A DNA stretch of 64,000 bases from Enterobacteria phage Ac3, in sequence record OK040907. One strand, given 5' to 3'. Below the pieces are notes generated by a model, which had not been told where the DNA came from, did not search any database, and worked only from the letters and a program-made list of their open reading frames with translations. Positions 8,935-60,963 of this stretch are shown piece by piece (the stretch's first letter is position 1; every line of letters starts with the position of its first letter). The translations under genes and the position numbers were made by a program.

Positions 8935-9176
8935 TAAATTTTGCGAGCCAGATCACGGATCTGACCAACAGTGTAGTCCTGGATGTACACTTTGTTGATC
9001 GGTTCATCGATGAATTTTGCCATGCTTTCGATATCCTTTTGGATCTCTTCCAGAGAGTAAACAATTTTCAGCGCTTTTTCGCGAATCGTAACGTTGTCCG
9101 GACCCGGGTTCTCCTGGATTACTGCTTTAACGTTCGTCATCAGAGATTTGAACTGATACCAAGACAGCTCAATCAT
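8934..9176 (-). CDS. small hypothetical protein in the dexA.1 position, with E. coli-optimised-looking codon usage
   Basis: 80 aa from internal Met MIELSWYQF; ctg/ccg/cgt-rich codons unlike neighbours; paralog pattern with 9169-9429; ATGATTGA overlap upstream and TAATG overlap with dexA. Confidence 0.55.
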   Translation of the reverse strand: MIELSWYQFKSLMTNVKAVIQENPGPDNVTIREKALKIVYSLEEIQKDIESMAKFIDEPINKVYIQDYTVGQIRDLARKI

Positions 9177-14486: not shown

Positions 14487-14958
14487 TTATTTTACCTAAA
14501 ACAATAGTATGGACACCGTCAAATTCATGAATTTTTAGCAAATTTGGATTTAAATTATTCCATAAAGAAGTAATAAAATATGATAACGCACTTTCGTCCG
14601 TAATTATAAATTTATTTCCTTTATCTATTTTCCAATCATATATTGAATCATATGAATAGAAGGATAACGGTTTATTATTATAATATGCTTCAGCAACATC
14701 AATATAGTTAGATTTAGTAAATGCTTGAATTGCCATAAATGGAGAATTTTGTACAGTTTCAATAATTCCGATCTTTTTAAGTTTTATTTCAACATCTTCT
14801 GGAACTGGCATTGAAATAAAATCTTCTACTAGATACATGTTATTGTCATATCTTTTGTCAATCATTACTGCTACGGTAATTGGAACATCCTTGACAAACG
14901 CCATACTAATACTATTGATAGACATTTCAAACAAAATCGCTTCCATAATTTTCCTCAA
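14461..14958 (-). CDS. hypothetical protein
   Basis: 165-aa ORF. Confidence 0.5.
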
Positions 14959-15299
14959 TCACAAGATGTAGATGAACAACTAGAATCACAAGAACTTCCA
15001 CATGAATCGCCCGTCCATACATGAACAGGAACATTAGTATCATATGAATCAGAACTAGATTGTGTATTCTGTGTGTTAGATGATGTAGTAGGTGTTGACC
15101 AGCGCCAAGGATTTTTATAATATTCTTGGGCTTCTTCATAAGTCATAGTAACTGCTTCTACTGTTCCATCTCCCATATAAACATACTCAACTACAGTTAA
15201 AGGAAGGTAGTTATTTGAAATAGGAACTACACCTTCCCCAGGAGTCGTAGAGAAAAAATCCGTAAAGAATCTTTTAAACCATTTAAAGATAAACATCAC
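14955..15299 (-). CDS. hypothetical protein with Ser/Cys-rich C-terminal tail
   Basis: 114-aa ORF ending [18 protein letters not shown]. Confidence 0.5.
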
Positions 15300-15508
15300 A
15301 AAAATCCTCTTTGAAATTCGACTCTTTGAAATCCATCCCAGTCAGTATATCGCATTTCAGCATTGAACTCGACTGAACCATCCGCATGCATCATGAATGA
15401 ATGCGTGACAACATCACAATCCCAGCTTTTCATACCCCATTTATCAGAGATAGCTTTATCAAGAACCTTCTGAAGGTCTTCATTTGGTTTAATCCAACGA
15501 TTTAACAT
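15296..15508 (-). CDS. small hypothetical protein
   Basis: 70-aa ORF downstream of promoter 15535-15564. Confidence 0.45.
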   Translation of the reverse strand: MLNRWIKPNEDLQKVLDKAISDKWGMKSWDCDVVTHSFMMHADGSVEFNAEMRYTDWDGFQRVEFQRGFL

Positions 15509-15534
15509 AGTGTTCTCCTCTATAAGATATTTTT

Positions 15535-15564
15535 ATTATACCACACTCATTTTGACATGTAAAC
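15535..15564 (-). promoter_or_regulatory. early promoter (GTTTAC - 18 nt - TATAAT)
   Basis: plus attata 15535-15540, gtaaac 15559-15564. Confidence 0.55.
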
Positions 15565-15579
15565 CATAAAATGAAAAAA

Positions 15580-15597
15580 GGAATCCCGAAGGATTCC
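15580..15597 (-). terminator. hairpin with UUCG tetraloop just 3' of soc
   Basis: plus ggaatcc-cgaa-ggattcc. Confidence 0.5.
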
Positions 15598-15606
15598 TTA
15601 AATTAT

Positions 15607-15864
15607 TTAACCACCTACACCTGGTGTAGGTGTAACAGTCCAAAGACCTTCATTAGCAGTGATCCATTCAGTACGCTGATTTTCTTCATATACTGTAGAA
15701 TATGCTGCTTTTTCAGAAGGGAATGTCTGATAATGAGCACCAGAAATTTTGTGAACATCAGAATAAAGAGGGAAAGCTACAGAAATTTCTTTACCCTGAA
15801 TTGTACCACCATCAACTGTTTGGTCAAATGTTTTAATATTAACATAACCGCGAGTACTAGCCAT
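15607..15864 (-). CDS. soc: small outer capsid protein Soc
   Basis: 85-aa ORF MASTRGYVNIKTF...EGKEISVAFPLYSDVHKISGAHYQTFPSEKAAYSTVYEENQRTEWI; late promoter upstream. Confidence 0.85.
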   Translation of the reverse strand: MASTRGYVNIKTFDQTVDGGTIQGKEISVAFPLYSDVHKISGAHYQTFPSEKAAYSTVYEENQRTEWITANEGLWTVTPTPGVGG

Positions 15865-15894
15865 GTAATTCTCCTTTTATTTAAATTACATGAT

Positions 15895-15902
15895 TATTTA
15901 TA
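15895..15902 (-). promoter_or_regulatory. late promoter TATAAATA for soc
   Basis: plus tatttata, about 30 nt upstream of soc ATG. Confidence 0.55.
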
Positions 15903-15932
15903 ATAAATTCTCGCGGCTTTTAAGACGAGCTG

Positions 15933-16451
15933 TTAATAACCTCGGTCTTGACGTGCGAAATTTTCAGCATTTTTCAGGTAATAAAGTTTAAAGATTTCTT
16001 CAGCTGTAAGACCAAGACCCTGGAACATATTCAGAACGAAATGGAGAATATCAATCATTTCAAATTTAATTTCCAATTGGTCTTGTGGAGACAAATCAGT
16101 AATCAGAGTTTCACGGCGTTCACCATGCTGCGACTTCCAAGGCTTCCATACAGCAGATGCATCTTTTTCACCATTGCTCATACCACCAAGAGAAGTCAGA
16201 AGTTCGCGGAATTCATCATCAATATAATCTTTCTGATTACGCAGCCAATCAACAACTTCACCTGCGGTAGCCAAATCATCAGGATGACGGTTATATTCAG
16301 GTTTATCTTTAGCTAAACGAACCTGTAGAGATTTCTGCATATCAAGCATAACCTGCAGCGGGTCTTTTTCATCACCAAGAATATCCCAGTATTCATTTTG
16401 AGCTTTATCAGCGCCTTCAATCAGTTGTGAACATTCGTTAAAGTAAGCCAT
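15933..16451 (-). CDS. 56: dCTP pyrophosphatase (dCTPase/dUTPase)
   Basis: 171 aa from internal Met MAYFNECSQLIEG with AGGAAA RBS; the longer 203-aa ORF has a hydrophobic N-terminal extension judged spurious. Confidence 0.8.
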   Translation of the reverse strand: MAYFNECSQLIEGADKAQNEYWDILGDEKDPLQVMLDMQKSLQVRLAKDKPEYNRHPDDLATAGEVVDWLRNQKDYIDDEFRELLTSLGGMSNGEKDASAVWKPWKSQHGERRETLITDLSPQDQLEIKFEMIDILHFVLNMFQGLGLTAEEIFKLYYLKNAENFARQDRGY

Positions 16452-16522
16452 TATTTTTCCTTTCAATTCATGGGTTAGTAGATTAATTATACAATAAATA
16501 TATAAAGCAATAAGGAGGACAT

Positions 16523-16723
16523 ATGGTACAAAAATTAATGGCACTTGTTAATGCCATCAAAGGTAATAAAAAGCGTATAGCTTTTACTATTTCTGCTATG
16601 GTAGGAATTTTACTCTGGAACTTTATTTTATCACCAATTGCAATTGCGCATGGTGTTAATATTCCAGTAGTTACTCTTGATACATTTGTAGATTTAGCAT
16701 TTGCTTTAGTTGGGTTAATTTAA
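16523..16723 (+). CDS. small hydrophobic membrane peptide (plus strand)
   Basis: 66-aa ORF with strong RBS taaggaggacatATG; convergent with primase gene; only plus-strand native-composition gene seen. Confidence 0.5.
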   Translation: MVQKLMALVNAIKGNKKRIAFTISAMVGILLWNFILSPIAIAHGVNIPVVTLDTFVDLAFALVGLI

Positions 16724-17748
16724 ATCTTAGCATATTTAGATAACCGCATTTTAGCCATCAACCCCTGTGCAATATTATTTTTCATATATTCCATAATTTG
16801 TTCAGGGGTTGCACCTTCCTTTCTAATCATATCATTAACATCTTTTGATTTCCAGGGAGATTTATCCCAAAACATAACCCTTTCTCCTGCATCAACTAAT
16901 TTAGTCATTCGTTTGATAGTGTCAGGGTGACGAGGTTCATTATCTAAAACCCACACACGTCTATCTTTAAATGGAACAACTTCTAGGTCTAATTGACCAC
17001 CTGTAATAGCTATACCATTTTCAATAAAAAGTGAATCTATAGGTCCTTCTAGAACATATACATCACCATCTTTAACTCGTTCGACTCCATAGATTTTTGT
17101 TGCTTCAGGATAAGCTTTGATAGTGATATATTTTTGGGGAGCATCTTTCTTTAATGCACGTCCTTGAAAAGACTCGGCTTTTCCATTAGCATTATAAATT
17201 GGAATAACAAGACGAGGCTCAGAAATTTCCTTTTTGTATGTTCCCGGTGCTATGCTATTAACTAATTTAGGCCATTCAGTTGTAAACCAAAGATATTTCC
17301 ATTTATCCTTTGGAATACAACGAGCTTTTACATATTTTATAATTGGATGGTCTTCCGCCAGTTTATCTAATCTAACACATGACGGAAGAGATTTAATCAT
17401 TTTCTTCTCAGGTTGTTTAGGAAGTTCTTTAGGTTTTTCTACTGGACGACTTTTACCTTTTTCTTTTCTTATTTCAAAGATATACTCACGATATAAATCA
17501 GGTTCAAACTCCTTTAAATATATTCCGATTGGTGCATGATAGTTACAGTTATAACAATGAATATTTCCTTCATTATTATCACCATAATACCATCCACGAG
17601 CTTTATTCTGGTCGGTTTTTGAATCTCCGCAAACAGGGCATCTAAACCGTAATTTAAAAGTTGAACTATTATTTACTTGTGTGAATTTAGGTAAATGAGC
17701 CAATGCACGATACGCAAACTCATTATCAATCCAAGGTATTGATGACAT
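16720..17748 (-). CDS. 61: DNA primase
   Basis: 342-aa ORF with N-terminal zinc-ribbon CPVCGDS...CYNCNYH; matches T4 gp61 length. Confidence 0.9.
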   Translation of the reverse strand: MSSIPWIDNEFAYRALAHLPKFTQVNNSSTFKLRFRCPVCGDSKTDQNKARGWYYGDNNEGNIHCYNCNYHAPIGIYLKEFEPDLYREYIFEIRKEKGKSRPVEKPKELPKQPEKKMIKSLPSCVRLDKLAEDHPIIKYVKARCIPKDKWKYLWFTTEWPKLVNSIAPGTYKKEISEPRLVIPIYNANGKAESFQGRALKKDAPQKYITIKAYPEATKIYGVERVKDGDVYVLEGPIDSLFIENGIAITGGQLDLEVVPFKDRRVWVLDNEPRHPDTIKRMTKLVDAGERVMFWDKSPWKSKDVNDMIRKEGATPEQIMEYMKNNIAQGLMAKMRLSKYAKI

Positions 17749-17750
17749 TT

Positions 17751-17915
17751 TTACTCTTCTTTTTCTTTAGATTCCTCTTTTTTCTTTTTAGGAATCTGTT
17801 CAGGACCTTTATTTACTACAGCACCTGATGTTGTTCCAGTAGAGATATTTTCAGGATTACCACCTGAATCTCCAGCTACCATATCTTCTTTAATAAATTC
17901 TTTATATGTTTTCAT
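17751..17915 (-). CDS. small hypothetical protein
   Basis: 54-aa ORF below track cutoff, stop immediately before gene 61 start. Confidence 0.4.
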   Translation of the reverse strand: MKTYKEFIKEDMVAGDSGGNPENISTGTTSGAVVNKGPEQIPKKKKEESKEKEE

Positions 17916-17916
17916 A

Positions 17917-18273
17917 TTAACCTCTATTCATAAAAGCATTAAAAATTTGGTCATCAATAGATGGAATAGCAACCTTTTCGGCATCATTTAGCAAATCATT
18001 AATTTCATCAGATAACATAACACATGTGCCTTTATTTCCTGTAATTGTTACTGCACAATTACGAACGTTTTCTTTATCAAATTTTAGGTTAATATTTTCG
18101 TAGTGAAAATCCTTTAATGCCGAATATATCTTTAAAATGAAATTGTCTTTTACTACAATAAACCCAACCTCACTATTAAAACATGGTTCATGGAAACTGT
18201 AATAAACCTTTTCATCTATAAAATCGTATGAAATTTTTTCCATTTTTAAATATGAAAATTCAGAACTATACAT
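17917..18273 (-). CDS. hypothetical protein sharing a C-terminal tail with 18275-18907
   Basis: 118 aa ending SIDDQIFNAFMNRG; native codons. Confidence 0.5.
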   Translation of the reverse strand: MYSSEFSYLKMEKISYDFIDEKVYYSFHEPCFNSEVGFIVVKDNFILKIYSALKDFHYENINLKFDKENVRNCAVTITGNKGTCVMLSDEINDLLNDAEKVAIPSIDDQIFNAFMNRG

Positions 18274-18274
18274 A

Positions 18275-18907
18275 TTAACCTTTGTTCATAAAAGCGTTGA
18301 AAATTTGGTCATCGATGGAAACGTTCACTTTAGACTGTTCCTCGAACGGCAGTTCGTAACCGCAAATAACGATTTTATGGTCGATACCGAAATAGACAGA
18401 GGCAATGTGGTTAATGTTATTTTCCGTGAAATCCAGGTCCACATCAATGTCTTTCTGGGAAACAGACAGCGGGTAGTTAATACGAATGATACGGTTATCC
18501 TTAACGAAGATGCCACCAACGTACTCGGTGTTACGTTTGAAGTTGACACGTTTACGGAAAGAGAAATATTCCGGTTCTTTGTGTGCACGGCTCATCGGGC
18601 ACAGGGAGTAGCTAGAGTAGCTAATGTCGAAACCTACACCTTCAATATGCGCGAGGGTGTCATGGTTAAACCAGTTGTAATCATAAGCCAGGTCCATGAT
18701 ATTGTAATAAGTAAACGGTACTGGGTTCACATCGTGGGTAGTACCTTTGAAGTCAGCCCATGCAACGATTTCGTTATCTTTTACGATCACAAAAATCGTA
18801 CCGATGAGGTAGCCACGGTTATTTTCGTCTGGAGTGATGTTATAACACTGAGCATCCGGGAATTTACCGTACTTGAACGGTGGGTTTTTATGCATGTAAT
18901 AGATCAT
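18275..18907 (-). CDS. hypothetical protein with E. coli-optimised-looking codon usage
   Basis: 210 aa from ATG at 18907 (MIYYMHKNPPF...), ending SIDDQIFNAFMNKG; ctg/ccg/cgt-rich; starts 1 nt after sp stop. Confidence 0.55.
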   Translation of the reverse strand: MIYYMHKNPPFKYGKFPDAQCYNITPDENNRGYLIGTIFVIVKDNEIVAWADFKGTTHDVNPVPFTYYNIMDLAYDYNWFNHDTLAHIEGVGFDISYSSYSLCPMSRAHKEPEYFSFRKRVNFKRNTEYVGGIFVKDNRIIRINYPLSVSQKDIDVDLDFTENNINHIASVYFGIDHKIVICGYELPFEEQSKVNVSIDDQIFNAFMNKG

Positions 18908-18908
18908 A

Positions 18909-19202
18909 TTATTCACCTGTGATTTCGGTTACGATATTTTTGTTATTAAAGTTTTTATCGCAATACAGAACATAATTATACTGCATTACACCACCAGACT
19001 TAAGTTGTTTTTGCACTTCAGCTTTCATTTTAGGACGATCGCGCTCAACAATATTCATAATATCCGCTTCAATTTGAGTTTCAACTTCAGTCTGATCTGC
19101 AGTCATAGACCATTCACACAAGTCTTTATCATATCCTGCCATAGCAGGCTGAGCAGCACAAGAAGCCAAAGTAAAAATTGTAGCAAAAATAAATTTTTTC
19201 AT
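18909..19202 (-). CDS. sp: Spackle periplasmic protein
   Basis: 97-aa ORF with signal peptide MKKFIFATIFTLASCAAQPAMA; size and position match T4 sp. Confidence 0.8.
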   Translation of the reverse strand: MKKFIFATIFTLASCAAQPAMAGYDKDLCEWSMTADQTEVETQIEADIMNIVERDRPKMKAEVQKQLKSGGVMQYNYVLYCDKNFNNKNIVTEITGE

Positions 19203-19262
19203 GATAATCTCCTCAGTAGTTTATGTTTATATAGTATCTCAATTTCCAACAAAAGTAAACAG

Positions 19263-19562
19263 CTATTTTAAAACTTCTGCGTAATCACATGTTACAAACT
19301 GTTTCTCTAGCTTAACGATTTTACGAAAATACCTTTTATACTGACGAATCTGCCTCTTCGTAGGACGTACAGCAAACTTAATAAATTCCACTCGACCAAA
19401 TGGAGGACTTTCTTCTGCTGGAATATCTAACACCAATTCCCATGTATCCGCAATAAGTGCTTTGAATTGAGTATTTTTCCTGACGTTATACGGAGTAGGT
19501 TTAAATAAAACAATATGCATATTATCCTCGGCAATCCACTTCGCACACTTTCTTGTCATCAA
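19263..19562 (-). CDS. hypothetical protein
   Basis: 99-aa ORF between dmd and sp. Confidence 0.5.
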   Translation of the reverse strand: MMTRKCAKWIAEDNMHIVLFKPTPYNVRKNTQFKALIADTWELVLDIPAEESPPFGRVEFIKFAVRPTKRQIRQYKRYFRKIVKLEKQFVTCDYAEVLK

Positions 19563-19704
19563 TGAAAGCTTTAACTAATGCTTTATTAACTTCAGCATAT
19601 TGAGTAGTAGCCCATTGAACGTCATCTTTCATCATTGTGATTTCTTTAGTAAACATGCTTTCATTCTTAAACCACCCCATAAAAACTACCTTTACCAATT
19701 CCAT
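19522..19704 (-). CDS. dmd: Dmd antitoxin (inhibitor of RnlA/LsoA)
   Basis: 60-aa ORF MELVKVVFMGWFKNESMFTKEITMMKDD...; first gene after promoter 19734-19763. Confidence 0.75.
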   Translation of the reverse strand: MELVKVVFMGWFKNESMFTKEITMMKDDVQWATTQYAEVNKALVKAFIDDKKVCEVDCRG

Positions 19705-19733
19705 AACAATCTCCTCATTTAACCAACAAGACT

Positions 19734-19763
19734 ACTATACCATAGTCTTGTCAGCTTGTAAAC
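19734..19763 (-). promoter_or_regulatory. early promoter (GTTTAC - 18 nt - TATAGT)
   Basis: plus actata 19734-19739, gtaaac 19758-19763. Confidence 0.55.
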
Positions 19764-21190
19764 TAAAATTTTAATTCATTTGCCAAAGCATCTAACTGAG
19801 CTCGAGCTGATTCATTTCTTTGATAGCGATTCTGTTCAGCCTGAATCTGTTGTGAACCTGCTACTTCACTCACTTCGGTTGGAGTAGAATCTTGTTCAAT
19901 TTCTACCCATTTTTGATTTCCTTTTTGAACACCCATCAAAAACTTATTCCACTTATTCTTATCACCATATCGTGATTTGATTTGCTTAATAAGTTGTTGT
20001 TCAGCAGCTGCTAGCTCCTCGGTTTCAATGACCGCAAGCATAAAATCAGCTGTTGCTGGAAGACCAGCAGATTCTGCAATATCGCTCATGTTAACATCGG
20101 AAGAGTCCCAAGCTTGTTTACCGACCTGTGCTGCAGTCCAAAGAACAGTTTCGGTTTCAACAGCCAGAGCACGCAATTCCTCTGCGATAGCTTTAACAGT
20201 TGTGTAACTATTTTCTGAATAAACTCTAATGCGGCAAGATTTACAAATACCTAGATAGTCGACAATAATGATTGTTGGAACAAAATTCTTTTTGAGCTTT
20301 AATTCATTTAAAAGTGATCGAAATGTATTAGCGTCTGCTCCACCAGTAGGATATTGCTTAACGATTAAACGACCAAGGGTAGATTTCTCACGCCATTTTT
20401 CCATTTTTCCTTTATATTCAGCGTAAGAAATATGCCCATCATCAATGTCATCAAGAGAAACATCAAGCATGTTAGCGTCAATACGCTTAGCACAGACTTC
20501 TTCTGCCATTTCCATGGAAATGTAAAGAACATTATGTCCGAGCTGTAAATAATCTGCTGCTAATGAACACAATCCTAATGATTTACCAACGTTAACGCCA
20601 GCCATTAAAACGTTCAGTGTTCCAGTTTCAGCTCCGCCTTTCGTAATTTTGTTTAGAATTCTGAGTTTAAATGGAACTTTACGAGCTTTATTCATATAAG
20701 ATAGCCAGCGTGCTTCGTAGTCATCCATCCAATCATGACCAACGTAGCTATCAAATGAAATTGATAATGCTTGACGCATGATGTCAGGAATAGCACCAAC
20801 ATCCGGCATTTTCTTATTTCGTTTTTCCGGAGGAAGCTCAGCATTAGTTTGAATTTCGATTATTTTAGACGTAGCATTAAACATCGCCCTTTGCTGAACA
20901 TATTTTTCTGTTTCTTTTACTAACCAGCTGTGGTCTTCTGGAGAATCGGCTAGTTTTGAAATAAGTGTTTTTACACCAGAATATTCCGTTTCAGTAAATG
21001 AACTATTTTCTAATGCAACATTTAACGCATTAATAGATGGAACGCTATGATACTCATTAACATGAGATTTAATTAATTTGAACGTATTTTTAGCTGGACC
21101 ACTTTCAAAATATTCTGAATCCATATATGGCCAAACTTTTGAAAAATAAGCTTGATCAAATATAAGATGAGAAAGAATAATTTCTACCAC
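19763..21190 (-). CDS. 41: replicative DNA helicase (DnaB-like)
   Basis: 475-aa ORF, Walker A GVNVGKS; matches T4 gp41 length. Confidence 0.9.
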   Translation of the reverse strand: MVEIILSHLIFDQAYFSKVWPYMDSEYFESGPAKNTFKLIKSHVNEYHSVPSINALNVALENSSFTETEYSGVKTLISKLADSPEDHSWLVKETEKYVQQRAMFNATSKIIEIQTNAELPPEKRNKKMPDVGAIPDIMRQALSISFDSYVGHDWMDDYEARWLSYMNKARKVPFKLRILNKITKGGAETGTLNVLMAGVNVGKSLGLCSLAADYLQLGHNVLYISMEMAEEVCAKRIDANMLDVSLDDIDDGHISYAEYKGKMEKWREKSTLGRLIVKQYPTGGADANTFRSLLNELKLKKNFVPTIIIVDYLGICKSCRIRVYSENSYTTVKAIAEELRALAVETETVLWTAAQVGKQAWDSSDVNMSDIAESAGLPATADFMLAVIETEELAAAEQQLIKQIKSRYGDKNKWNKFLMGVQKGNQKWVEIEQDSTPTEVSEVAGSQQIQAEQNRYQRNESARAQLDALANELKF

Positions 21191-21199
21191 ACTTACTCC

Positions 21200-21562
21200 T
21201 TAAAAGAATTTAAACTTTTTCTTTGACCTTTTATTAAATGCATCTTGTAGTTGCATTGTAATACATTTTTCTACATGAGGAGCTAACTCAGCTTTTCTTT
21301 CTTGGTCAAGAACAGCAAAGTCCATTACGACTTTTCCATCAACCCAATCTAATTTTGTCACATACACAATGTGTGTAGAACCATCTTCTAGTTTAATGAC
21401 AATCTCCTGGATAACATTTTCCATGGCAGATTTAATTATCTTAAGAGATTCATTAAAAAGACGTTCTTTTCTTTCTTCTTCCCCCTCCGAAGAGGGGGAT
21501 TCATCGATAATTTCTAGATCTAAATCTAAATCATCTTTATTCATTAAATTCTTCCATATCAC
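21200..21562 (-). CDS. hypothetical protein in the gene 40 position
   Basis: 120-aa ORF between 41 and uvsX. Confidence 0.5.
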   Translation of the reverse strand: MIWKNLMNKDDLDLDLEIIDESPSSEGEEERKERLFNESLKIIKSAMENVIQEIVIKLEDGSTHIVYVTKLDWVDGKVVMDFAVLDQERKAELAPHVEKCITMQLQDAFNKRSKKKFKFF

Positions 21563-22718
21563 TTAACTGCTCGAGGTCAGTTTCTAAATCAGCAGCTGAT
21601 TTACTTTTACTTTCTGGAGATTTAAATTTTTCAACCTTTGAGTTAATCAATTCATCAACTTCAGCTTCAACAATTTCATTACTATCAATAGCACCTAACT
21701 GATAAGCACGTTTAATAGCATCTCGGAATGGTTGATGCTTAAATAAAGGACCCCAGAATGTGGTGCAGTTGGTATCTTTTGCACGCCAAGATTTTTCTTC
21801 GCGAATCATCTCACCGGTTTCTTCATCAAGAAATTCACGAGCATACCAACCATTTTTAGGTTTTACCACGAATCCTAATTCTAGAGCCATATCTAACAAT
21901 CCAGAATAAGGATCGATACCGCCGTCAAATTTAACATCAATAAAGAATTTACTTTTTTCTTTAACGGTACGAGATTTTTCTACATTTAGAACAAATTGAT
22001 ACCCTTGAAGATCAGAACCATCTTTAATCTGACGTTTACCGATAATGAATACGGTATCAGCCGAATACATTACGCCTGTACCACCTGTCATCACGGTTTT
22101 ACTAAACATTTCAATTGTTTCAATTGTATGGTTAACCGCAACACATGGAATATTTTTAATGCTAAAGTAAGGAGTAACAATACGGAATAATGACTTCAGT
22201 GATTTAGCACGAGTCATATCTGCCACAGATTTTTCATTCAAGGCATCTTCCGTTTCTTTCTTAGAAGCCATATTACCAATTGAGTCGATGAATACAATAA
22301 CCTTTTCACCACGCTCAATAGCTTCAAGCTGGTTCACCATATCAATTTTCAGCTGTTCAACTGACTGAATCGGCGTATGAATTACTCGTTCCGGGTCAAC
22401 TCCCATGGATCGCAAATAAGCTGGAGTAATACCAAATTCACTATCATAGAATAGACAAACCGCGTCAGGATATTTGTTCAAATATGCCGCAACCATAGTC
22501 AAAGACATATTTGATTTAAAGTGTTTAGAAGGCCCTGCGAAAATAGTTAAACCAGACTGCATGCCGCCATCAATCGCACCAGAAATAGCAATATTAAGCA
22601 TTGGAATTTTTGTACGAATTACATCCTTTTCATTAAAGAATTTAGATGTAGTCAGTTCAGCAGTCATTTTAGAAGTGGAAGCTTTAATCAAACGGGATTT
22701 TAAATCTGCAATAGACAT
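21537..22718 (-). CDS. uvsX: UvsX recombinase (RecA-like)
   Basis: 393-aa ORF MSIADLKSRLIKASTSK...; RecA fold motifs. Confidence 0.9.
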   Translation of the reverse strand: MSIADLKSRLIKASTSKMTAELTTSKFFNEKDVIRTKIPMLNIAISGAIDGGMQSGLTIFAGPSKHFKSNMSLTMVAAYLNKYPDAVCLFYDSEFGITPAYLRSMGVDPERVIHTPIQSVEQLKIDMVNQLEAIERGEKVIVFIDSIGNMASKKETEDALNEKSVADMTRAKSLKSLFRIVTPYFSIKNIPCVAVNHTIETIEMFSKTVMTGGTGVMYSADTVFIIGKRQIKDGSDLQGYQFVLNVEKSRTVKEKSKFFIDVKFDGGIDPYSGLLDMALELGFVVKPKNGWYAREFLDEETGEMIREEKSWRAKDTNCTTFWGPLFKHQPFRDAIKRAYQLGAIDSNEIVEAEVDELINSKVEKFKSPESKSKSAADLETDLEQLSDMEEFNE

Positions 22719-31960: not shown

Positions 31961-32674
31961 ATGAACTATAAACTGATCTACGAAAAACTGATCAGCAACG
32001 CCAAATCCCGTAAACTGGACTGTTACACCGAGTCTCATCACATTATCCCGCGCTGCCTGAATGGCTCCGATGACGCGAGCAACCTGGTAGACCTGACCCC
32101 TGAGGAACATTACGTTGCACACCAGCTCCTGGTTAAAATTTATCCGTCCGAGCCAAAACTGATTTACGCTGCCAACATGATGACTGTATCCACTAAATAT
32201 GCTAAACGCAATAACAAAACGTTCGGTTGGATCCGTCGCAAACTGTGGGAAATCGAAAAAAACAAAGAATTCTCTCAGGAAACCCGTAAGAAAATGTCCG
32301 ATGCGGTTGCCAACAAGGCGCGCCTGACCTGCCCGCACTGTGGTAAATCTGGCCTGTCTGGTAACATGAATCGTTGGCACTTCGATAATTGCCCGAACCA
32401 CCCGAATCCGAAAGTGCGTCCTCCGATGTCTAAAGAACACCGTAATAACATCAGCAACGGTCTGAAAGCAATTATCCTGGAGGAAACCTCTTGCGAATTC
32501 TGCGGTATGATCGGCAAGAAATGCGTGATTGCAGCTCACCGTAACTTCTGTAAGAAAAACCCGAACGGCCGTAAGAAAACCGAGAAAACCGGTACTTGCG
32601 TGCACTGCGGTAAAGTTACGACCTTTGGCAACCTGAGCCGTTGGCACAACGACAACTGCAAGCACAAACACTAA
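31961..32674 (+). CDS. HNH homing-endonuclease-like protein with C-terminal Cys-rich zinc-finger repeats; codon-optimised-looking
   Basis: 237-aa plus-strand ORF with ESHHIIPRCLNGSDDASNLVDLTPEEHYVAH motif; ctg/ccg/cgt codons; stop overlaps gene 46 stop (convergent). Confidence 0.65.
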   Translation: MNYKLIYEKLISNAKSRKLDCYTESHHIIPRCLNGSDDASNLVDLTPEEHYVAHQLLVKIYPSEPKLIYAANMMTVSTKYAKRNNKTFGWIRRKLWEIEKNKEFSQETRKKMSDAVANKARLTCPHCGKSGLSGNMNRWHFDNCPNHPNPKVRPPMSKEHRNNISNGLKAIILEETSCEFCGMIGKKCVIAAHRNFCKKNPNGRKKTEKTGTCVHCGKVTTFGNLSRWHNDNCKHKH

Positions 32675-34359
32675 TTGATCGTAGCAACGGAGAAACGACC
32701 CACTTTCTCCATTTTGATGTGCTGACCGTAGTCCTGTGGGTCGTGGTCTTTGTGGCTGATAATGAAAAAGTTAGTATCTTTCAGGCCATCGAGAATTTTA
32801 GCGACGTTTTTGATACCTTCGGCGTCGAACGCGCCATCGTACACTTCATCCAGGAACAGGCAAGAGATTTTTACACCAGAGACTTTTTCGGCGATGTCAC
32901 GCCAGGTGAACAGGAGGGCGATATCGATACGTGCCTTTTCGCCTTGGGAGAAGGATGCATAAGAGAAATCTTCGCGGCCGCGGGATTTGATAGTTTCGTT
33001 GAATTCCTCGTCCAGGGTGAAAACATAGTCCGCCTCCATAATTTTCAGATAATGGTTGATCTGTTTGTTGAACAGCGGGATGTATTTCTTAATGATCGCG
33101 CCCTTGATGCCGCTGTCTTTCAGCATGTCGGTCAGGATGCCACGGTGGTATTTTTCCATCACCAGGTTGGTTTTAGTCTTCACGATCTTATCCAGCTCTT
33201 CCTGCAGGAGGGCAATTTCGTCCGCGTGGTCAATGAATTCAGAGGAAGCTTTTTCAATGGCAGCTTTAACTTTCTTAGCTTTGTCAACCGTGGTAATCAG
33301 GGACTGTTTCTTGTTACGAATATCGTTCGCCAGAGACTGTTGGGTCTTAATGTTATCACGATATTCGTCCACCAGGACTTTCAGGTTATCGCGGTGGGTG
33401 GACAGTTGTTCAAAAGAGTGGGTGCATTCGCTCACCTTATCTTTAATTTTGCTCACAACTTTATCACCGCTGGACAGTTGAGACAGGCAGGTCGGACACA
33501 GACCGCCCTCGTGGTACATGTTGATAACTTTGTTGTAGCTATCGATTTTGGATTTAATCAGCACGGCCTCCTGGCCAATTTTGTTAAAAGCATCAGTAGG
33601 GTCTTCGTCCAGCACGATGTTGACCAGACGTTCATTCGCTTCCTCGATTTCGCTTTTCAGGGTACGAGCTTCTTTAGCCAGATCGTCGTACATGTTCTGC
33701 AGGCGCGTCAGGTTGTCACCGGTCAGTTTCTTCTGACGTTCTACGTTGTCGTTGTAGATCTTGATCTGTTGGATAATAGAGTCTTTCTTCACATCCAGTA
33801 CCTGGTTCTGAGAGTTCAGTTCACGGATCAGTGCTTTGTTCAGTTTGTCCATCTCCGCCAGGGTGCCAACCTCCAGGAGGTCTTCGACCAGCTTACGGCG
33901 TGCTGGAGTGCTCAGGCCCATGAACGGAGTGTAACCCGCAGTGCCGAGCACAACAATCTGCTTGAAGCTAGCGTAAGACATACCGATCAGCTGTTCGAAC
34001 TCGGCCTGAAAATCTTTGGAAGAGGCAGATTCGTTCAGACGGGTGCCGTTCACAGTGATTTCAAAGACGTTTGGTTTTTGACCGCGTTTGATGTAATATT
34101 TCTTTTCGTCATATTCCATCCACAGTTCTACCAGGAGTTCTTTCTTATTGGTGCTGTTGATCAGCTGGCCTTTCTTAACGTCGCGGAACGGTTTACCGAA
34201 GAGGCCGAAGGTAATAGCCTCCAGCATGGTAGATTTACCGCCACCGTTACGACCAGTGATCAGGGTTTTCTGAACTTTGTCCAGCTGGATATCAACGCCG
34301 TTCTGGCCTACGCTCATAATGTTCTTGTATTTAACACGGTTCAGTTTAAAGGATTTCAT
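32671..34359 (-). CDS. 46: recombination endonuclease subunit (SbcC/Rad50-like ATPase)
   Basis: 562-aa ORF, Walker A GRNGGGKST, coiled coil; protein is gp46-like but DNA is E. coli-optimised-looking. Confidence 0.85.
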   Translation of the reverse strand: MKSFKLNRVKYKNIMSVGQNGVDIQLDKVQKTLITGRNGGGKSTMLEAITFGLFGKPFRDVKKGQLINSTNKKELLVELWMEYDEKKYYIKRGQKPNVFEITVNGTRLNESASSKDFQAEFEQLIGMSYASFKQIVVLGTAGYTPFMGLSTPARRKLVEDLLEVGTLAEMDKLNKALIRELNSQNQVLDVKKDSIIQQIKIYNDNVERQKKLTGDNLTRLQNMYDDLAKEARTLKSEIEEANERLVNIVLDEDPTDAFNKIGQEAVLIKSKIDSYNKVINMYHEGGLCPTCLSQLSSGDKVVSKIKDKVSECTHSFEQLSTHRDNLKVLVDEYRDNIKTQQSLANDIRNKKQSLITTVDKAKKVKAAIEKASSEFIDHADEIALLQEELDKIVKTKTNLVMEKYHRGILTDMLKDSGIKGAIIKKYIPLFNKQINHYLKIMEADYVFTLDEEFNETIKSRGREDFSYASFSQGEKARIDIALLFTWRDIAEKVSGVKISCLFLDEVYDGAFDAEGIKNVAKILDGLKDTNFFIISHKDHDPQDYGQHIKMEKVGRFSVATIN

Positions 34360-34374
34360 TTTGTATCCAATTGT

Positions 34375-35225
34375 TTAGAGGCTAGAGAATTCTTTTACCA
34401 GGGCTTGCAGGCTAGCTTCGATCGGATAACCATTTTTCACCAGCATTTTACGGAACATCACGTGTTTAGGACGGTTATAGCTGATCCACAGTTCGTACAG
34501 TTTGTCTTTGTTGTCCCAGTGGTAACCTTTGCGACGGCTGGCAATGTGAGCCTTACGAATCTCCGGATTTTTCCAGCTTGCAGCGACAGAGTTGGAAATC
34601 GGCTTTTGATATTTTGAGACGGGCACAGCGGAGCGAAAGGCTTACGAGTGTTGAGTTTGGTGCGTTTCATGGTCAGACCGTTTGCCAGATGCCACTGGAA
34701 TTTCTGTTTAGTTTTGAAGTTATTCAGACGTTCTTTGTTATCCTTACGGTTTTTCGCTACGGAGAAGTATTTCAGTGCGCGTTCACGAGCTGCATTACGG
34801 TTCTGTGGGTTGGAGTAATACTGTTGCAGGCGTTTAGAAATGGTATCGGAAACATCCTGTTTGATAAAAGAGTATTCTGCCGCAATCAGATCAACTTCTG
34901 CCAGGCTGAGGTTTTTATAGGTTTTGCCAGACATCATACGATTCAGCGCGTTCAGCATTTTACCGTTTTTACCTTTTGCCAGGAGGAAGTGTGCTTTAAA
35001 GTGGTTAAAGTGGCTGAGGTTCACCAGGTTCCAGGTAGATTTGAGATATTCCGGGAAGATAGATTTCGGCAGCACGTGATGTGCTTCGGTCTTGCCCGGA
35101 GTCTTAACGGTGCTGTTAACGCTAATGAAGTTGATATAGGACTTAGCGTCTTCCTCAGACAGCGCCAGTTTTTCCACCAGTTCTTTGATCAGGAATTCAT
35201 CGTTGATGTCCAGTTTGAAGTTTTT
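34375..35225 (-). pseudogene. HNH endonuclease-like gene, disrupted (frameshift, no canonical start); codon-optimised-looking
   Basis: EAHHVLPKSIFPEY HNH motif in one frame (to about 34640); C-terminal part continues in another frame (34375-34626) after an in-frame TAA; no ATG upstream of the recoded N-terminal segment. Confidence 0.45.
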
Positions 35226-35440
35226 AACAAAAGATTCCTTTTAATGTATCTTTTAGACCATTCTATCATATCATCATAATCTAAAAAGTATTCATCAAAT
35301 TCAGCCATGCAAACAACGCCTTGTGCTGTTTTTGATGTAATATAAATTATTCCAACATATCTAGAATCTTCTTCGGTATAATCAATATTTGCTATAAATT
35401 CATCATTAATGTCAAATGTCGAAAACTTCACAGTATGCAT
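35189..35440 (-). CDS. hypothetical protein, 3' end uncertain
   Basis: native-composition ORF from Met MHTVKFSTFDINDEF; its reading frame runs into the recoded block; contains a motif (FDINDEF) repeated at the start of 34375-35225. Confidence 0.3.
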   Translation of the reverse strand: MHTVKFSTFDINDEFIANIDYTEEDSRYVGIIYITSKTAQGVVCMAEFDEYFLDYDDMIEWSKRYIKRNLLLKTSNWTSTMNS

Positions 35441-46148: not shown

Positions 46149-46319
46149 TTAGTTGCGCAGCTTATTCAGTTCCTCGTCATCGATCCAAGACTCCAGACCG
46201 GACGGCAGAGCACATTCGATCTCCCACAGGAGTTCCTCAATTTTCTGCAGGCGATCCAGTTCCTCAGCCGGGATGGTCACCATGGACGGTGCACGGCTTA
46301 CGTTAATGTCATAGATCAT
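46149..46319 (-). CDS. small acidic protein with E. coli-optimised-looking codon usage
   Basis: 56-aa ORF below track cutoff (MIYDINVSRAPSMVTIPAEELDRLQKIEELLWEIECALPSGLESWIDDEELNKLRN); GC-rich island bounded by native genes. Confidence 0.5.
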   Translation of the reverse strand: MIYDINVSRAPSMVTIPAEELDRLQKIEELLWEIECALPSGLESWIDDEELNKLRN

Positions 46320-49470: not shown

Positions 49471-50495
49471 TAGTTCAGTGCATTTAATGCATTGTTCAGT
49501 TTAGAACGTTGCTTCGTGAGATTTTTGACTTTTTCTTGTGCTTTTTCTAGCATCTTTTCAGCTTCTAACACTTCATTGGTCGCTTTAACGAGTTCATCAT
49601 CTACTGCCTTGATAGACTTCTCAATCGCATCCGCGTGCCATTTTTCAACAGGTTTAAGACTCGGATTTTCAATAGGAAGAAAATTCACTTTATTGAATTT
49701 CCATGCATCCTTATTACCTGAACTATACATCCAAAATTTAGGATCGTTTGATGAGTAATTGGATAAATTTAAATTTAAGTTATCTTGCACTTCCTGCTTC
49801 TTCTCTTGCGTGACTTCGTCCTTTCTCAAAAAATCATATTTAAATGAAACAATCATATCAAGTTCATATGTTGTTGTGTCTAATTTAAATCGTTCGAAAT
49901 GCTGTGAAATCTTAGACCGAACAGCGGCAACAACATCCATATACTTAAATGCTTCTGTCAACTGTGATTTAAGGCATTCACAAATTGAAAGAGAATTTTT
50001 TGTATTAGGTTTAAAGCTAATTCGTGCAGTTCTATTATTTTCTTTTAATGGTCTTACTTCCATCTGAAGAGTATAACCATCAAATTTCAAGTTCTTTAAG
50101 TTAATATCAGAACCTTTTAATCGACTAGCAGTTGATAAAATTTGCTTTAATTGTCTACGGAACAGAGCAATAAATCTCCATTCAATACGATAATGATTTG
50201 GATTGAAAAATCCAGATGATAAATCGACCTTACTCTGACCAACACCTTGAACAAATAGAGGATTTTTATAATCAATAGTTTTACAGAAATCGGTGAGCTG
50301 CTCACGAGCAGTCATTTGTGTAATATATCCCGCTTTACTAAAATGACGTAACCATTCACTGCTATTCATATACTTAAAGTGAATGGAACTATTAACTCTA
50401 TCAGGGTCTAAATTATTTTGGCACAAAAATGTCATAACATCACGAGTATAGCTGGCATTACGAACCATATCTTCAATTTGAGAACGAGTTTTCAT
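49470..50495 (-). CDS. hypothetical protein with C-terminal coiled coil (array member 3)
   Basis: 341-aa ORF. Confidence 0.55.
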   Translation of the reverse strand: MKTRSQIEDMVRNASYTRDVMTFLCQNNLDPDRVNSSIHFKYMNSSEWLRHFSKAGYITQMTAREQLTDFCKTIDYKNPLFVQGVGQSKVDLSSGFFNPNHYRIEWRFIALFRRQLKQILSTASRLKGSDINLKNLKFDGYTLQMEVRPLKENNRTARISFKPNTKNSLSICECLKSQLTEAFKYMDVVAAVRSKISQHFERFKLDTTTYELDMIVSFKYDFLRKDEVTQEKKQEVQDNLNLNLSNYSSNDPKFWMYSSGNKDAWKFNKVNFLPIENPSLKPVEKWHADAIEKSIKAVDDELVKATNEVLEAEKMLEKAQEKVKNLTKQRSKLNNALNALN

Positions 50496-54637: not shown

Positions 54638-55648
54638 TTACTTATAGTAGGAGCGGTGGTTCTCCAGGTAAACTTTTTCCAGAAAGTCATCCCAGAAACC
54701 CATGTCAACCTTTTGCTGCATGCCATTCTTGGATGCTTCCGTGCTCGCAGCCTCCACCTGATCAACTACGTCCTCGAGGAATTCCTGCACGGTTTTGAAC
54801 GGGTGCTTGCCCAGTTTGACATCCAGGATAAACGGCGCATCCTGCAGTGGGTAGATCAGGTCGCCGGTTTTGTAAATTTCCAGGAGCTGCAGGCCACCGC
54901 GGCATGCATGGGACAGAGCTTTCCAGTCGATGCCTTCGTTTGCCTCTGCTTTGCGGGCGCGTTCGCCGTATTCAGCATCCAGTTTATTCAGGGATTGTTT
55001 CAGTTCGATCAGGCTCAGGGTAGTCTGATATTTACGACCCAGCACCGTATAGAAAGTTTGCGGGCCGGTTTTTTCGTGGTTGTGAAACACCCATTCACAG
55101 AATTCGTTTTCCGGCAGGCGGTGTTTGATATCTTCGATTTTGGTACGGCGTTGACCCTGAGTGCCGTCTTCGCGATAAACGTTGCGCTGGTCCGGGATCT
55201 GATTCACGACTTTCAGGACGTCGCGCAGAGCGGCCAGACGGGAGCCCTTAACACCATATTTAGAGGCTTGTTTGCGTACATAGCCCAGGTAAGATTTCAT
55301 ATTGGTAGTGTAGAAGCGGCTGCGGTTGTCCTGAATGAATTTCCAAACGTCAGGCAGATCGCTCTTAACCACCAGTTCTGGCGGCGTATGCAGCATGTCG
55401 AGTGCCACGGTCTCACCGTCCGCAGCCAGTTTGAAAAAATACTTGAGGCTATACAGTTCGTGGTCGATGTCATCTTTGGTATTCTTGCTAGAGGTATTGT
55501 TGGTGTTTTTAGACATGTGTTCTTTCACGTTGCCGATCAGAATGTCACGTGCCGGTGGCACGAAGATCTCTTTGAAGTCGACATCGCTTTCCGGGGTGGA
55601 AGTGCCGTACAGGTGGCTGCCAAAGTAGGATTTCATCACAGTCTTCAT
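54638..55648 (-). CDS. Pol-beta-superfamily nucleotidyltransferase-like protein; codon-optimised-looking
   Basis: 336-aa ORF with N-terminal GS-x11-DVD motif (YFGSHLYGTSTPESDVDF) and candidate third acidic residue in ALDMLH; ctg/ccg/cgt-rich DNA. Confidence 0.55.
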   Translation of the reverse strand: MKTVMKSYFGSHLYGTSTPESDVDFKEIFVPPARDILIGNVKEHMSKNTNNTSSKNTKDDIDHELYSLKYFFKLAADGETVALDMLHTPPELVVKSDLPDVWKFIQDNRSRFYTTNMKSYLGYVRKQASKYGVKGSRLAALRDVLKVVNQIPDQRNVYREDGTQGQRRTKIEDIKHRLPENEFCEWVFHNHEKTGPQTFYTVLGRKYQTTLSLIELKQSLNKLDAEYGERARKAEANEGIDWKALSHACRGGLQLLEIYKTGDLIYPLQDAPFILDVKLGKHPFKTVQEFLEDVVDQVEAASTEASKNGMQQKVDMGFWDDFLEKVYLENHRSYYK

Positions 55649-56109
55649 TATTCAGCTTTGTATTCGATCACCGGACACACTTTCGCTTTGCGCGCTTTCA
55701 GGAACTCAACAATGATAGATTTCTTCGGTTGGATTGGCGGCAGGCCTTTGTAAGCGCGATCGATGTTTTCAACGTGCAGCGCGTAATCTTTCTTCCATTT
55801 GTAGTCTTTGTATTTCTCACGCAGGTGCGCCGGAATCACGAAGGAGCCGATAATCAGGAGAACCACCAGGAGTGCCAGAATGAACGCGGATGGCAGGAGG
55901 GTCCACAGGCTACCGAAGATCAGCCAGCGCTGCAGGGATTCAGCACAGATAATAGTCAGACCAACCAGGATGGCACAACCGAAGATGGAAACGAAAAACG
56001 TCGGGATGGCGATAGACCAGAAGTACGCGCACAGGGTTTTAGGGCGCTGCCACTCGTCGTTAAACAGTTTGAACAGCTTATAGTGCCAAGAGTTTTCATT
56101 AATGATCAT
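55648..56109 (-). CDS. two-transmembrane-helix membrane protein; codon-optimised-looking
   Basis: 153-aa ORF with two long hydrophobic segments; TAATG overlap with the nucleotidyltransferase gene; native RBS upstream. Confidence 0.55.
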   Translation of the reverse strand: MIINENSWHYKLFKLFNDEWQRPKTLCAYFWSIAIPTFFVSIFGCAILVGLTIICAESLQRWLIFGSLWTLLPSAFILALLVVLLIIGSFVIPAHLREKYKDYKWKKDYALHVENIDRAYKGLPPIQPKKSIIVEFLKARKAKVCPVIEYKAE

Positions 56110-60083: not shown

Positions 60084-60514
60084 TTATTTCGGTTTACCTT
60101 CCTTCACGAAGTCTGGGTACGGATAAAAGCCAGAGTAGAAACCTTCGCCTTTGTGGTTGATACAACCTTTGTTGGAACAATAGCACCAGTAATCGAAATC
60201 GCAAGCCATTTCGTCGTTGCACAGGGCGAAAACGACCGGCCATTTACATTTTTCACAGTGCGCGTTTTTCAGGATGGAAGTCTGGGATACCGCCAGGTGA
60301 CTTTCAGGCAGTATTCCTCCACATGCTGTTTGCGACCTTTCTTGTCGATGAAGGTGTATTCAACGAAGGTACCGATGTAATCTTTATCCACGTCGTGCGG
60401 AGAGTTGATCGGGCACTTAGTACGGCAGATGCGTTCCCACTGACGAATGATTACAGCCTTGTTTTTCGGGTCGAACGGGTGTGGATAATGTACTTTTACA
60501 GCAGCGGCTCCCAA
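60084..60514 (-). pseudogene. Cys-rich protein gene split across two reading frames; codon-optimised-looking
   Basis: frame A (TTG start in track) has protein-like sequence to about 60300; frame B continues with HCEKCKWPVVFALCNDEMACDFDYWCYCSNKGCINHKGEG... to a TAA at 60084-60086; no ATG. Confidence 0.4.
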
Positions 60515-60963
60515 TCAACGATTACGATTTCCAGTTTGGAAGAATAGGTGTCCAGGATACCTTCAATGATGTCCCAGTTGCCTTTACCGATGCCGGCGCC
60601 GATGCGCGGCATGTAGATGGTTGGTTTGATCAGTTTGTTTTCACCGAATTCGTTCAGCTCCAGCATACAATTCATCAGCGCAGAATATTCAAAGTTTGGG
60701 CCCGGCTGGAACTGAGTGTACAGGTTAAAACAGTACGCTTTGTGGGTGCGAAAGTACTTTTCATACACGGAGTAGCTACCCAGTTTAGTCACGTCGCCCC
60801 ATTCGGTCTGCAGCTTGTCAGCTTCCAGGATTTTCGGAAACGCTTTGGTCAGCTGACCGGCTACACCCGCTTTCATGGTATGGAAGCAGTTACAGCCGTG
60901 AGCGATGTTTTTACCTTCGGCAAACAGCGCTACGATATCGCCTTTGATGTATTTGACAATCAT
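60496..60963 (-). CDS. macro-domain protein (Poa1p-like ADP-ribose-1''-phosphate phosphatase family); codon-optimised-looking
   Basis: 155-aa ORF with IAHGCNCFHTMKAGVAGQL and YMPRIGAGIGKGNWD motifs resembling Poa1p; ATGA overlap with upstream native gene. Confidence 0.55.
   Translation of the reverse strand: MIVKYIKGDIVALFAEGKNIAHGCNCFHTMKAGVAGQLTKAFPKILEADKLQTEWGDVTKLGSYSVYEKYFRTHKAYCFNLYTQFQPGPNFEYSALMNCMLELNEFGENKLIKPTIYMPRIGAGIGKGNWDIIEGILDTYSSKLEIVIVDWEPLL

Follow-up and report, generated by a model that had tools for sequence, protein, structure and literature searches.

The window analysed here, a 64,000 nucleotide stretch of the Enterobacteria phage Ac3 genome (record OK040907), contains a run of minus-strand genes which includes dmd and gene 41 (ORF listing) as well as those given in Table 1. 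Two adjoining ORFs of this region, for proteins of 210 and 118 amino acids, had been singled out in an earlier reading of the sequence alone, and both were confirmed to be present on the minus strand. The larger of the two, adfA, comes immediately after sp, ahead of 61.1 and the primase gene 61, with its ORF (18275–18916) encoding 213 amino acids when read from a GTG codon and 210 from the annotated ATG at 18907. Gene order in the annotated RB51 genome follows that of the window from sp to the primase gene, and the same layout was found in T4, p000v, JS98 and VR25, with 61.1 being annotated in T4, JS98 and VR25. In all five of the loci inspected, the genes carrying the C-terminal tail described below are located between sp and 61.1/61.

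Table 1. Features of the adfA region and their coordinates in the window.
Feature	Coordinates	Strand	Basis or remark
gp56 ORF	15933-16544	minus	ORF listing
Primase gp61 ORF	16720-17748	minus	ORF listing
61.1 ORF	17751-17915	minus	ORF listing
Single-domain AdfA paralogue (RB51ORF035 / RB32ORF033c family), 118 aa, native codons	17917..18273	(-)	BLASTP, Pfam, phrog_4122, hhalign, RB51 record
Paralogue tail codons SIDDQIFNAFMNRG, residues 105-118	17920..17961	(-)	Codon listing
Junction AAA GGT TAA T ATG, AdfA end/paralogue start	18271..18283	(-)	Sequence
adfA (T4-type gene 61.2), anti-DarT factor A, 210 aa	18275..18907	(-)	Pfam PF23813; RB51 gene 61.2 at same coordinates
AdfA tail codons SIDDQIFNAFMNKG, residues 197-210	18278..18319	(-)	Codon listing; 7/42 bases changed by recoding
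Synonymous recoding span	18284..18902	(-)	Codon 2 to codon 208; ungapped comparison with NC_012635.1
His167 codon	18407..18409	(-)	Aligned with RB69 AdfA position 164
Spackle (sp) ORF	18909-19202	minus	ORF listing

The 210-aa protein is a full-length member of the AdfA family (T4 gp61.2/RB69 AdfA), matching Pfam PF23813 over profile positions 1–210 of 211 (E 8.5e-138, 457 bits against a gathering score of 27 bits) and also phrog_3781. It is 100% identical to gp61.2 of RB51 and RB68, and to a further homolog (P0006). No match was obtained in NCBIfam, and a PDB sequence search with the AdfA family profile returned nothing. AdfA was discovered through RB69 escape mutants on DarTG1. It consists of two domains and is reported to neutralise, by binding, DarT1, the DNA ADP-ribosyltransferase toxin of the DarTG1 defence system (PMC11257639 / PMC11825919; PMC11481870). 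With the substitution R164H, RB69 AdfA gains two-hybrid association with the DarT1 ADP-ribosyltransferase and neutralises DarT1, His at this position representing the DarT1-binding allele and Arg the non-binding allele (PMC11257639). Gene 61.2 of T4 is an "active" His allele, and T4 without adfA shows no DarTG1 phenotype (PMC11257639 / PMC11825919). His167 of the window AdfA was found to align with an Arg of the RB69-type p000v protein, this Arg having the number 164 if the count begins at MHKN. Judged by this alignment, the window AdfA has the His allele at the position that decides specificity (RB69 164).

A comparison of the N-terminal and C-terminal halves of AdfA by hhalign gave a probability of 12% over only 11 columns, located around a VKDN-E/R-I motif. 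The two halves share VKDNEI/VKDNRI and a similar predicted secondary structure (a strand meander followed by a helix), and the N-terminal half may have arisen as another, more diverged copy of the C-terminal domain, although the profile evidence is weak. AdfB (ICP1 Gp145) and the C-terminal domain of DarG resemble AdfA in their proposed action, that of a small protein which binds and blocks DarT, and in AdfB, too, active and inactive alleles are set apart by one residue (G62D). However, they show no sequence similarity to AdfA (<15% per PMC11481870) and do not share its tail motif.

At the DNA level, the whole window corresponds to phage RB51 (NC_012635.1) position for position, except for 1614 mismatches in seven clusters (8943–9168, 18284–18902, 31966–35226, 46152–46314, a single base at 49918, 54639–56104 and 60085–60955). 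Within gene 61.2 (18275–18907), 126 bases differ from RB51, 113 of these at third codon positions, altering 116 of the 211 codons without any amino acid change, and the translation is identical to that of RB51 gp61.2. The impression gained from the sequence alone, that the 210-aa gene had optimised-looking codons and was a recoded copy, is borne out by these 126 synonymous and zero non-synonymous differences. Between 14700 and 22300, every mismatch to NC_012635.1 in an ungapped comparison is confined to 18284–18902, with approximately 3.3 kb on each side being identical. The six further clusters show the same pattern, all changes being synonymous in each annotated gene checked.

The GC content at third codon positions is 0.53 for the recoded gene, 0.22 for the RB51 version and 0.28 for the median of the window ORFs, with overall GC values of 0.42 for the recoded gene and 0.31 for that of RB51. 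Along the DNA, GC reaches 0.43–0.45 over 18300–18900 against ~0.26–0.35 in the flanks. All seven Arg codons of the recoded gene are CGT and all seven Leu codons are CTG or CTC, with ATA, GGA and ACA being absent after recoding and AAC, TTC, TAC and ATC being dominant. The codons favoured by the recoding are those preferred in highly expressed E. coli genes. A megablast search with 17700–19300 found RB51 and RB68 at identical coordinates with only 92.1% identity, and the DNA of the recoded gene itself gave 485 matches among 50,697 phage records, all of them at most 80% identical and the best being RB51 (79.9%). This DNA had no match in 72,556 plasmids, and a 38-mer taken from it had no exact match in IMG/VR.

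It could be proposed that the codon usage of 18275–18907 is natural, arising from horizontal acquisition or from selection for high expression, as T-even genomes do have GC-rich islands and GC is raised here to the extent given above. This was rejected and is given next to no chance, since all 126 differences from RB51 are synonymous, the edges at codons 2 and 208 are sharp, the flanks across 14700–22300 are 100% identical, six more blocks of the window are alike and each of the 485 natural homologs is no more than 80% identical. A set of changes that numbers in the hundreds, is synonymous throughout, stops at gene edges and is surrounded by identical DNA cannot arise naturally. Comparison with its natural parent shows that gene 61.2 was recoded on purpose, with synonymous codons preferred by E. 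coli, in an RB51 backbone, as were several other genes of the window. Synonymous-only differences confined to the ORF, with identical flanks, are what was found, and the likeness to codon-optimised or refactored synthetic genes extends to the codons chosen (CGT, CTG, GGT, ATC, AAC, TTC, TAC), to boundaries that match the gene and to the appearance of a long antisense ORF (205 aa). The difference is that the recoding is embedded here in an otherwise native phage genome. The recoding of gene 61.2 is a design artefact and not biology, with the window copy differing from adfA of RB51 in DNA only, and the "recoded" signal was produced by engineering or in silico and is not evidence of horizontal transfer or expression tuning. 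It should also be noted that the 205-aa antisense ORF, at 18305–18922, stands where the native RB51 antisense ORF is 91 aa in length, and is a by-product of the recoding.

The DNA of the 118-aa gene (17917–18273) is identical to RB51ORF035, and its product is an exact member of the RB32ORF033c/RB51ORF035 family (phrog_4122, E 2.1e-72) with 99% identity to a protein of phage wV7. The two window proteins had been described as dissimilar apart from their tails, which proved to be wrong. BLASTP aligned residues 21–118 of the 118-aa protein with residues 111–210 of AdfA (numbered from the annotated ATG; 114–213 from the GTG) at 38% identity over 106 columns (E 2e-10), the Pfam AdfA profile was matched with 33.2 bits (cut-off 27) at positions 129–211 only, and hhalign of the AdfA C-terminal halves against the short family gave a probability of 98.5% (E 2.6e-15). 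The RB51 record already labels the gene as "similar to gp61.2". On the basis of these alignments, the 118-aa gene is a natural tandem paralogue, consisting of the AdfA C-terminal-half domain, a linker and the tail. The family differs from AdfA in having one domain instead of two and in having Asn in the column of AdfA His167, the DarT1-neutralising His feature being absent. The adjoining two-gene arrangement is also found in RB51, RB68, AR1, wV7 and many other independent genomes. Both window proteins are already present in public databases at 99–100% identity and the genes are known, with no function reported for the 118-aa paralogue family in the literature searched.

The stop codon of adfA and the start codon of the paralogue are separated by one base, with the final two AdfA codons forming a Shine-Dalgarno-like AAGG(T) located 5–6 bases ahead of the paralogue ATG. 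A junction of the same layout, AGA GGT TAA T ATG, precedes gene 61.1 at 17913–17925. The AdfA/paralogue junction is kept across genera in the DNA alignment and was untouched by the recoding, and the two genes may be translationally coupled, to judge by its sequence. Promoter and terminator scans of the native and the recoded DNA gave nothing beyond shuffled expectation.

The tails of AdfA (SIDDQIFNAFMNKG) and of the 118-aa paralogue (SIDDQIFNAFMNRG) are identical at 13 of 14 residues, compared with 25 of 96 (26%) in the remaining aligned columns (binomial P 2.7e-7), and the shared ending SIDDQIFNAFMN(K/R)G on which the sequence-only reading was built is thus real. Its remark that the tail DNA is similar with shifts at third positions also agrees with the codon comparison, in which 36 of 42 bases are identical in the window (39 of 42 in native RB51) and five of the six differences fall at third codon positions, the sixth being the second position of the K/R codon. 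In addition to the IFNAFMN(K/R)G ending of the window AdfA, the RB69 primer sequence in PMC11257639 ends with ...IFNAFMNRG. The pattern of the tail is [ST][IV]DDQIFNAFM[NK][RK][GD], with the protein always ending three residues after the Met. The stretch DDQIFNAFM is invariant in AdfA of T4, RB51 and p000v and in metagenomic AdfAs at 60–75% identity, in the 118-aa family down to 73% identity, in the divergent short forms P0023, P0025 and P0028 (33–49% identical overall) and in a third architecture of ~145 aa (JS98, VR25). The exceptions are two short fragments, P0026 (DVQ) and P0031 (ends FL). The tail was invariant across homologs in other T-even genera, so that the absence which would have told against the sequence-only reading was not what was found.

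A tblastn search of 50,697 phage genomes with the tail located it at 838 places in 679 records, all of T-even-type phages and, among the records listed, with none having more than two tail sites. With this number of sites and with two-copy genomes being common, a local assembly duplication was rejected as the source of the similarity. Degenerate back-translation of DDQIFNAFM identified 16 loci with 19 sites in 2.9 million viral contigs (IMG/VR), mostly on contigs of 116–172 kb (L015 and L020 being on shorter ones of 6.7 and 51 kb). All 19 sites lie three residues ahead of a stop codon, and they belong to only three body types, namely AdfA, proteins of 117–119 aa and proteins of ~145 aa. When 1.84 billion representative proteins were searched exhaustively with a profile, 10 matches were obtained, each of them a member or a fragment of the AdfA family. 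A profile built from the final 47–59 residues returned only seven short fragments, and a PDB search with the tail profile found no chain with a similar motif. The tail is an invariant C-terminal hallmark of a small T-even phage family, being unchanged in nearly all of the full-length AdfA family members examined while their domains diverge to 17–45% identity. This family-wide invariance of a motif of 9–12 residues across three architectures, set against a remainder that has diverged almost past recognition, is not described in the AdfA literature searched and, together with the tethered-helix signature of the tail given below, seems modestly new.

The ~145-aa proteins, JS98 orf30 and VR25 gp038, represent a family (phrog_8539) which is absent from the window. 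They have the invariant tail in common with AdfA and are encoded directly downstream of sp, the slot of adfA in RB51, T4 and p000v (loci inspected), and in VR25 a 119-aa short paralogue follows gp038. In contrast to the tail, the body does not resemble AdfA significantly in sequence, as BLASTP aligned the tail only (13/14, E 2e-6; next segment E 0.12) and the Pfam AdfA profile was matched at positions 197–211 only. A BFVD model of the ~145-aa protein did resemble the model of the 118-aa protein (Foldseek E 1.2e-4, TM 0.56 / 0.47), and on these models the three tail-bearing body types probably belong to one fold family. Since JS98 orf30 and VR25 gp038 share only the tail with AdfA at a significant sequence level, the tail might be regarded as a portable C-terminal peptide which shuffling of domains or peptides had attached to two proteins with no other relationship. 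This is distinctly unlikely, as the window proteins are homologous over ~100 residues, the 145-aa family has both the fold match and the gene position just mentioned, and the tail occurs on no other body type in the phage genomes or viral contigs searched. Of the modular interaction or targeting peptide that had been proposed from the sequence, what stands is a discrete and exceptionally conserved C-terminal element; its carriers are tandem AdfA paralogues with only three body types, and "targeting" or "interaction" would be putative roles of it.

In a DNA alignment of seven natural tails, eight codons showed synonymous variation (TCT/TCA, GAT/GAC, CAA/CAG, ATT/ATA, GCT/GCA/GCC, TTT/TTC, AAT/AAC and AGA/CGA) with no amino acid change in DDQIFNAFM. 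As synonymous sites of the tail vary without the amino acids changing, it follows that selection acts on the peptide. A constraint on the DNA itself, in the form of a ribosome-binding or coupling signal, a promoter or gene conversion between adjacent copies, would be in keeping with the conserved (A/C)GAGGT-TAA-T-ATG junction formed from the last two codons and the stop, with the 39/42 identity of the native RB51 tails and with the tendency of paralogues in the same genome to share their Ala codon (GCT in RB51, GCC in VR25). It is very unlikely to be what keeps the tail, however, given the eight variable codons, the retention of the peptide in the single-copy genomes of T4, JS98 and p000v, and the outcome of the promoter scan, and its reach would not go beyond the last two or three codons. 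At the nucleotide level, the junction probably adds a constraint which is limited to the final residues.

The AF2 model of the 118-aa protein has a mean pLDDT of 81.6, with ten-residue blocks over 11–90 averaging 85–94, residues 101–104 falling below 50 and a tail helix at 106–115 scoring ~51–54. The same pattern was seen in the AdfA model, with a tail helix at 198–207 (pLDDT ~54–60). The models were built on shallow alignments (17–19 sequences) and the low pLDDT could simply reflect this depth. It had been suggested that structure prediction might reveal a docking helix; a short helix was indeed predicted in both proteins, but only with low confidence (pLDDT ~51–60). Its hydrophobic moment of 0.44 was reached by 15% of shuffles, making it modestly amphipathic but not statistically notable. 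Indels are most frequent in the part of the alignment that immediately precedes the tail, with insertions of 6–10 residues in P0018, P0021 and P0025. The combination of a confidently modelled domain, a linker of variable length and a short, unchanging helix modelled with low confidence suggests that the tail is most likely a tethered binding or docking motif, as far as can be inferred from the models.

The tail could instead be an integral C-terminal helix which packs on the sheet of the AdfA-type domain and is kept for folding or stability. It is predicted to be helical in both models, contains four hydrophobic residues (I, F, F, M) and is at the very C-terminus of every family member, and packing on the core is possible, the invariant tail columns being without covariation signal. 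A role of this kind is nevertheless rather unlikely, because structural helices normally tolerate conservative changes, whereas nine consecutive residues, the polar D, D, Q and N included, are invariant here with the core down to 17–45% identity. The variable-length linker of low confidence between core and tail and the AF2 scores of the helix also argue against it.

A binding partner among the replication proteins was also considered, namely the gp45 sliding clamp, to which the tail would attach in the manner of the C-termini of gp43 and gp55, recruiting the AdfA family to replication forks as the site of ssDNA modification by DarT. The locus lies between the genes for primase (61) and helicase (41), and DarT targets ssDNA (PMC11481870). 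The tail is C-terminal, short, acidic and aromatic, and begins with S-I-D where gp43 and gp55 have S-L-D. However, the gp43 (SLDFLFG) and gp55 tails of the window align with SIDDQIFNAFMNKG only at S-[LI]-D, and the AdfA tail does not have the S-L-D-F-L-[FY] clamp-binding C-terminal motif. By inspection, we also take it to fit neither the PIP-box nor the beta-clamp consensus. Together with the lack of a PDB chain with a similar motif, this makes attachment to the clamp extremely unlikely.

Taken as a whole, it is quite likely that the locus consists of a recoded adfA which encodes an unchanged His-allele AdfA, followed by a natural one-domain tandem paralogue, with both proteins bearing a selected hallmark tail that forms a putative docking helix. 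As to how such a docking motif might work, the tail would be a short helix on a flexible linker of variable length, docking onto a conserved surface which is most likely situated on the toxin target or on a common partner. Which toxin variant is recognised would then depend on the variable globular domain, position 164 included, and the 118-aa paralogue would act as another inhibitor, minimal in form and directed at a DarT-like variant of a different kind. That the tail docks all three AdfA-type architectures to one conserved partner, be it a conserved surface of DarT-like ADP-ribosyltransferases or a conserved protein of phage or host, with the fast-evolving domains providing specificity in an "anchor plus variable head" family of inhibitors, can be put forward as a tentative possibility.

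Some published observations limit the docking of the tail onto DarT1. Wild-type RB69 AdfA, in which the tail is intact, shows no two-hybrid association with DarT1 (PMC11257639), and the tail alone is therefore insufficient for DarT1 binding. In the construct that was positive in the two-hybrid assay, T18 appears to be fused after the tail (pUT18 layout), in which case a free C-terminus is not required. A docking role is further limited by the modest amphipathicity of the helix, by the lack of a similar motif in the PDB and by the mismatch with the gp43 and gp55 tails. Asn in place of His167 in the paralogue and the DarTG1 result for T4 without adfA also count against the overall reading.

For the T-even phages, the locus represents a known anti-DarTG counter-defence gene, adfA, together with an uncharacterised single-domain paralogue. 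If the proposed arrangement of anchor and variable head is true, the 118-aa protein and other members with one domain would be anti-defence factors, as yet uncharacterised, which act against further variants of the toxin. If the tail docks, it would provide a simple experimental handle on the neutralisation of DarT by AdfA, and could help to explain the roles of the "inactive" alleles and of the short paralogues.

Hints of an internal duplication were found within AdfA (anti-DarT factor A, the product of gene 61.2 at 18275-18907), with both halves carrying a VKDN(E/R)I strand motif (residues 38-51 versus 131-146) and being predicted to have a similar strand-meander-plus-helix layout. Profile comparison of one half with the other gave a weak match (12% probability).

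A third architecture bearing the shared C-terminal tail (core DDQIFNAFM) was found in Dhakavirus and Gaprivervirus phages, as represented by JS98 orf30 and VR25 gp038. These proteins of about 145 aa belong to phrog_8539 and their gene lies immediately 3' of the spackle gene (sp), the slot taken by adfA in RB51. The protein body is not recognisably AdfA-like in sequence; its predicted fold is similar. In VR25 this gene adjoins that of a 119-aa short paralogue, the single-domain relative of AdfA represented by ORF035 in RB51. It should also be noted that in some T-even genomes the ORF called for the short paralogue comprises no more than its final 33 residues (MLSDEINDLLNDAEKVAIPSIDDQIFNAFMNRG), as in three 33-aa proteins (P0032, P0033, and P0035) from phage contigs of 135-168 kb. 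This suggests that such ORFs are disrupted copies of the short paralogue retaining the tail-coding end.

Synonymous recoding relative to RB51 was also detected outside gene 61.2, in six further blocks of the window, taking in dexA.1, a mobB-like homing endonuclease, gene 46 with the stretch to 35226, RB32ORF081c ("antitoxin"), nrdC.11, RB32ORF096c, and RB32ORF111c/tk.3/tk.4. No amino acid change from RB51 was present in any annotated gene checked within these blocks, and GC3 rose from 0.19-0.31 to 0.53-0.65 in the genes for which both values were computed. The final base of the 31966-35226 block alters one residue of 46.1, and an isolated C-for-T substitution relative to RB51, at position 49918, alters one residue of nrdC.5. 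The two long antisense ORFs within recoded genes are by-products of the GC3-rich recoding and not genes, because the antisense ORF in the native RB51 61.2 is only 91 aa.

Coordinates of features in the window and in the JS98 and VR25 loci
Feature	Coordinates	Strand	Remark
sp/61.2 junction	18905-18917
61.2/ORF035 junction	18271-18283
ORF035/61.1 junction	17913-17925
Antisense ORF, 205 aa	18305-18922	+	within recoded gene
Antisense ORF, 521 aa	33052-34617	+	within recoded gene
46.1 CDS	35225-35431
Recoded blocks	8943-9168; 31966-35226; 46152-46314; 54639-56104; 60085-60955		comparison with RB51
JS98 orf30	L004 1111-1545		third tail-bearing architecture
VR25 gp038	L006 753-1190		third tail-bearing architecture

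The three consecutive junctions running from sp to 61.1 are all of the ...GGT(G/T)AA-TA(A)T-ATG stop-start type, with the last codons at each containing a Shine-Dalgarno-like GG(T/A)G. This arrangement is consistent with translational coupling along the early-gene string.
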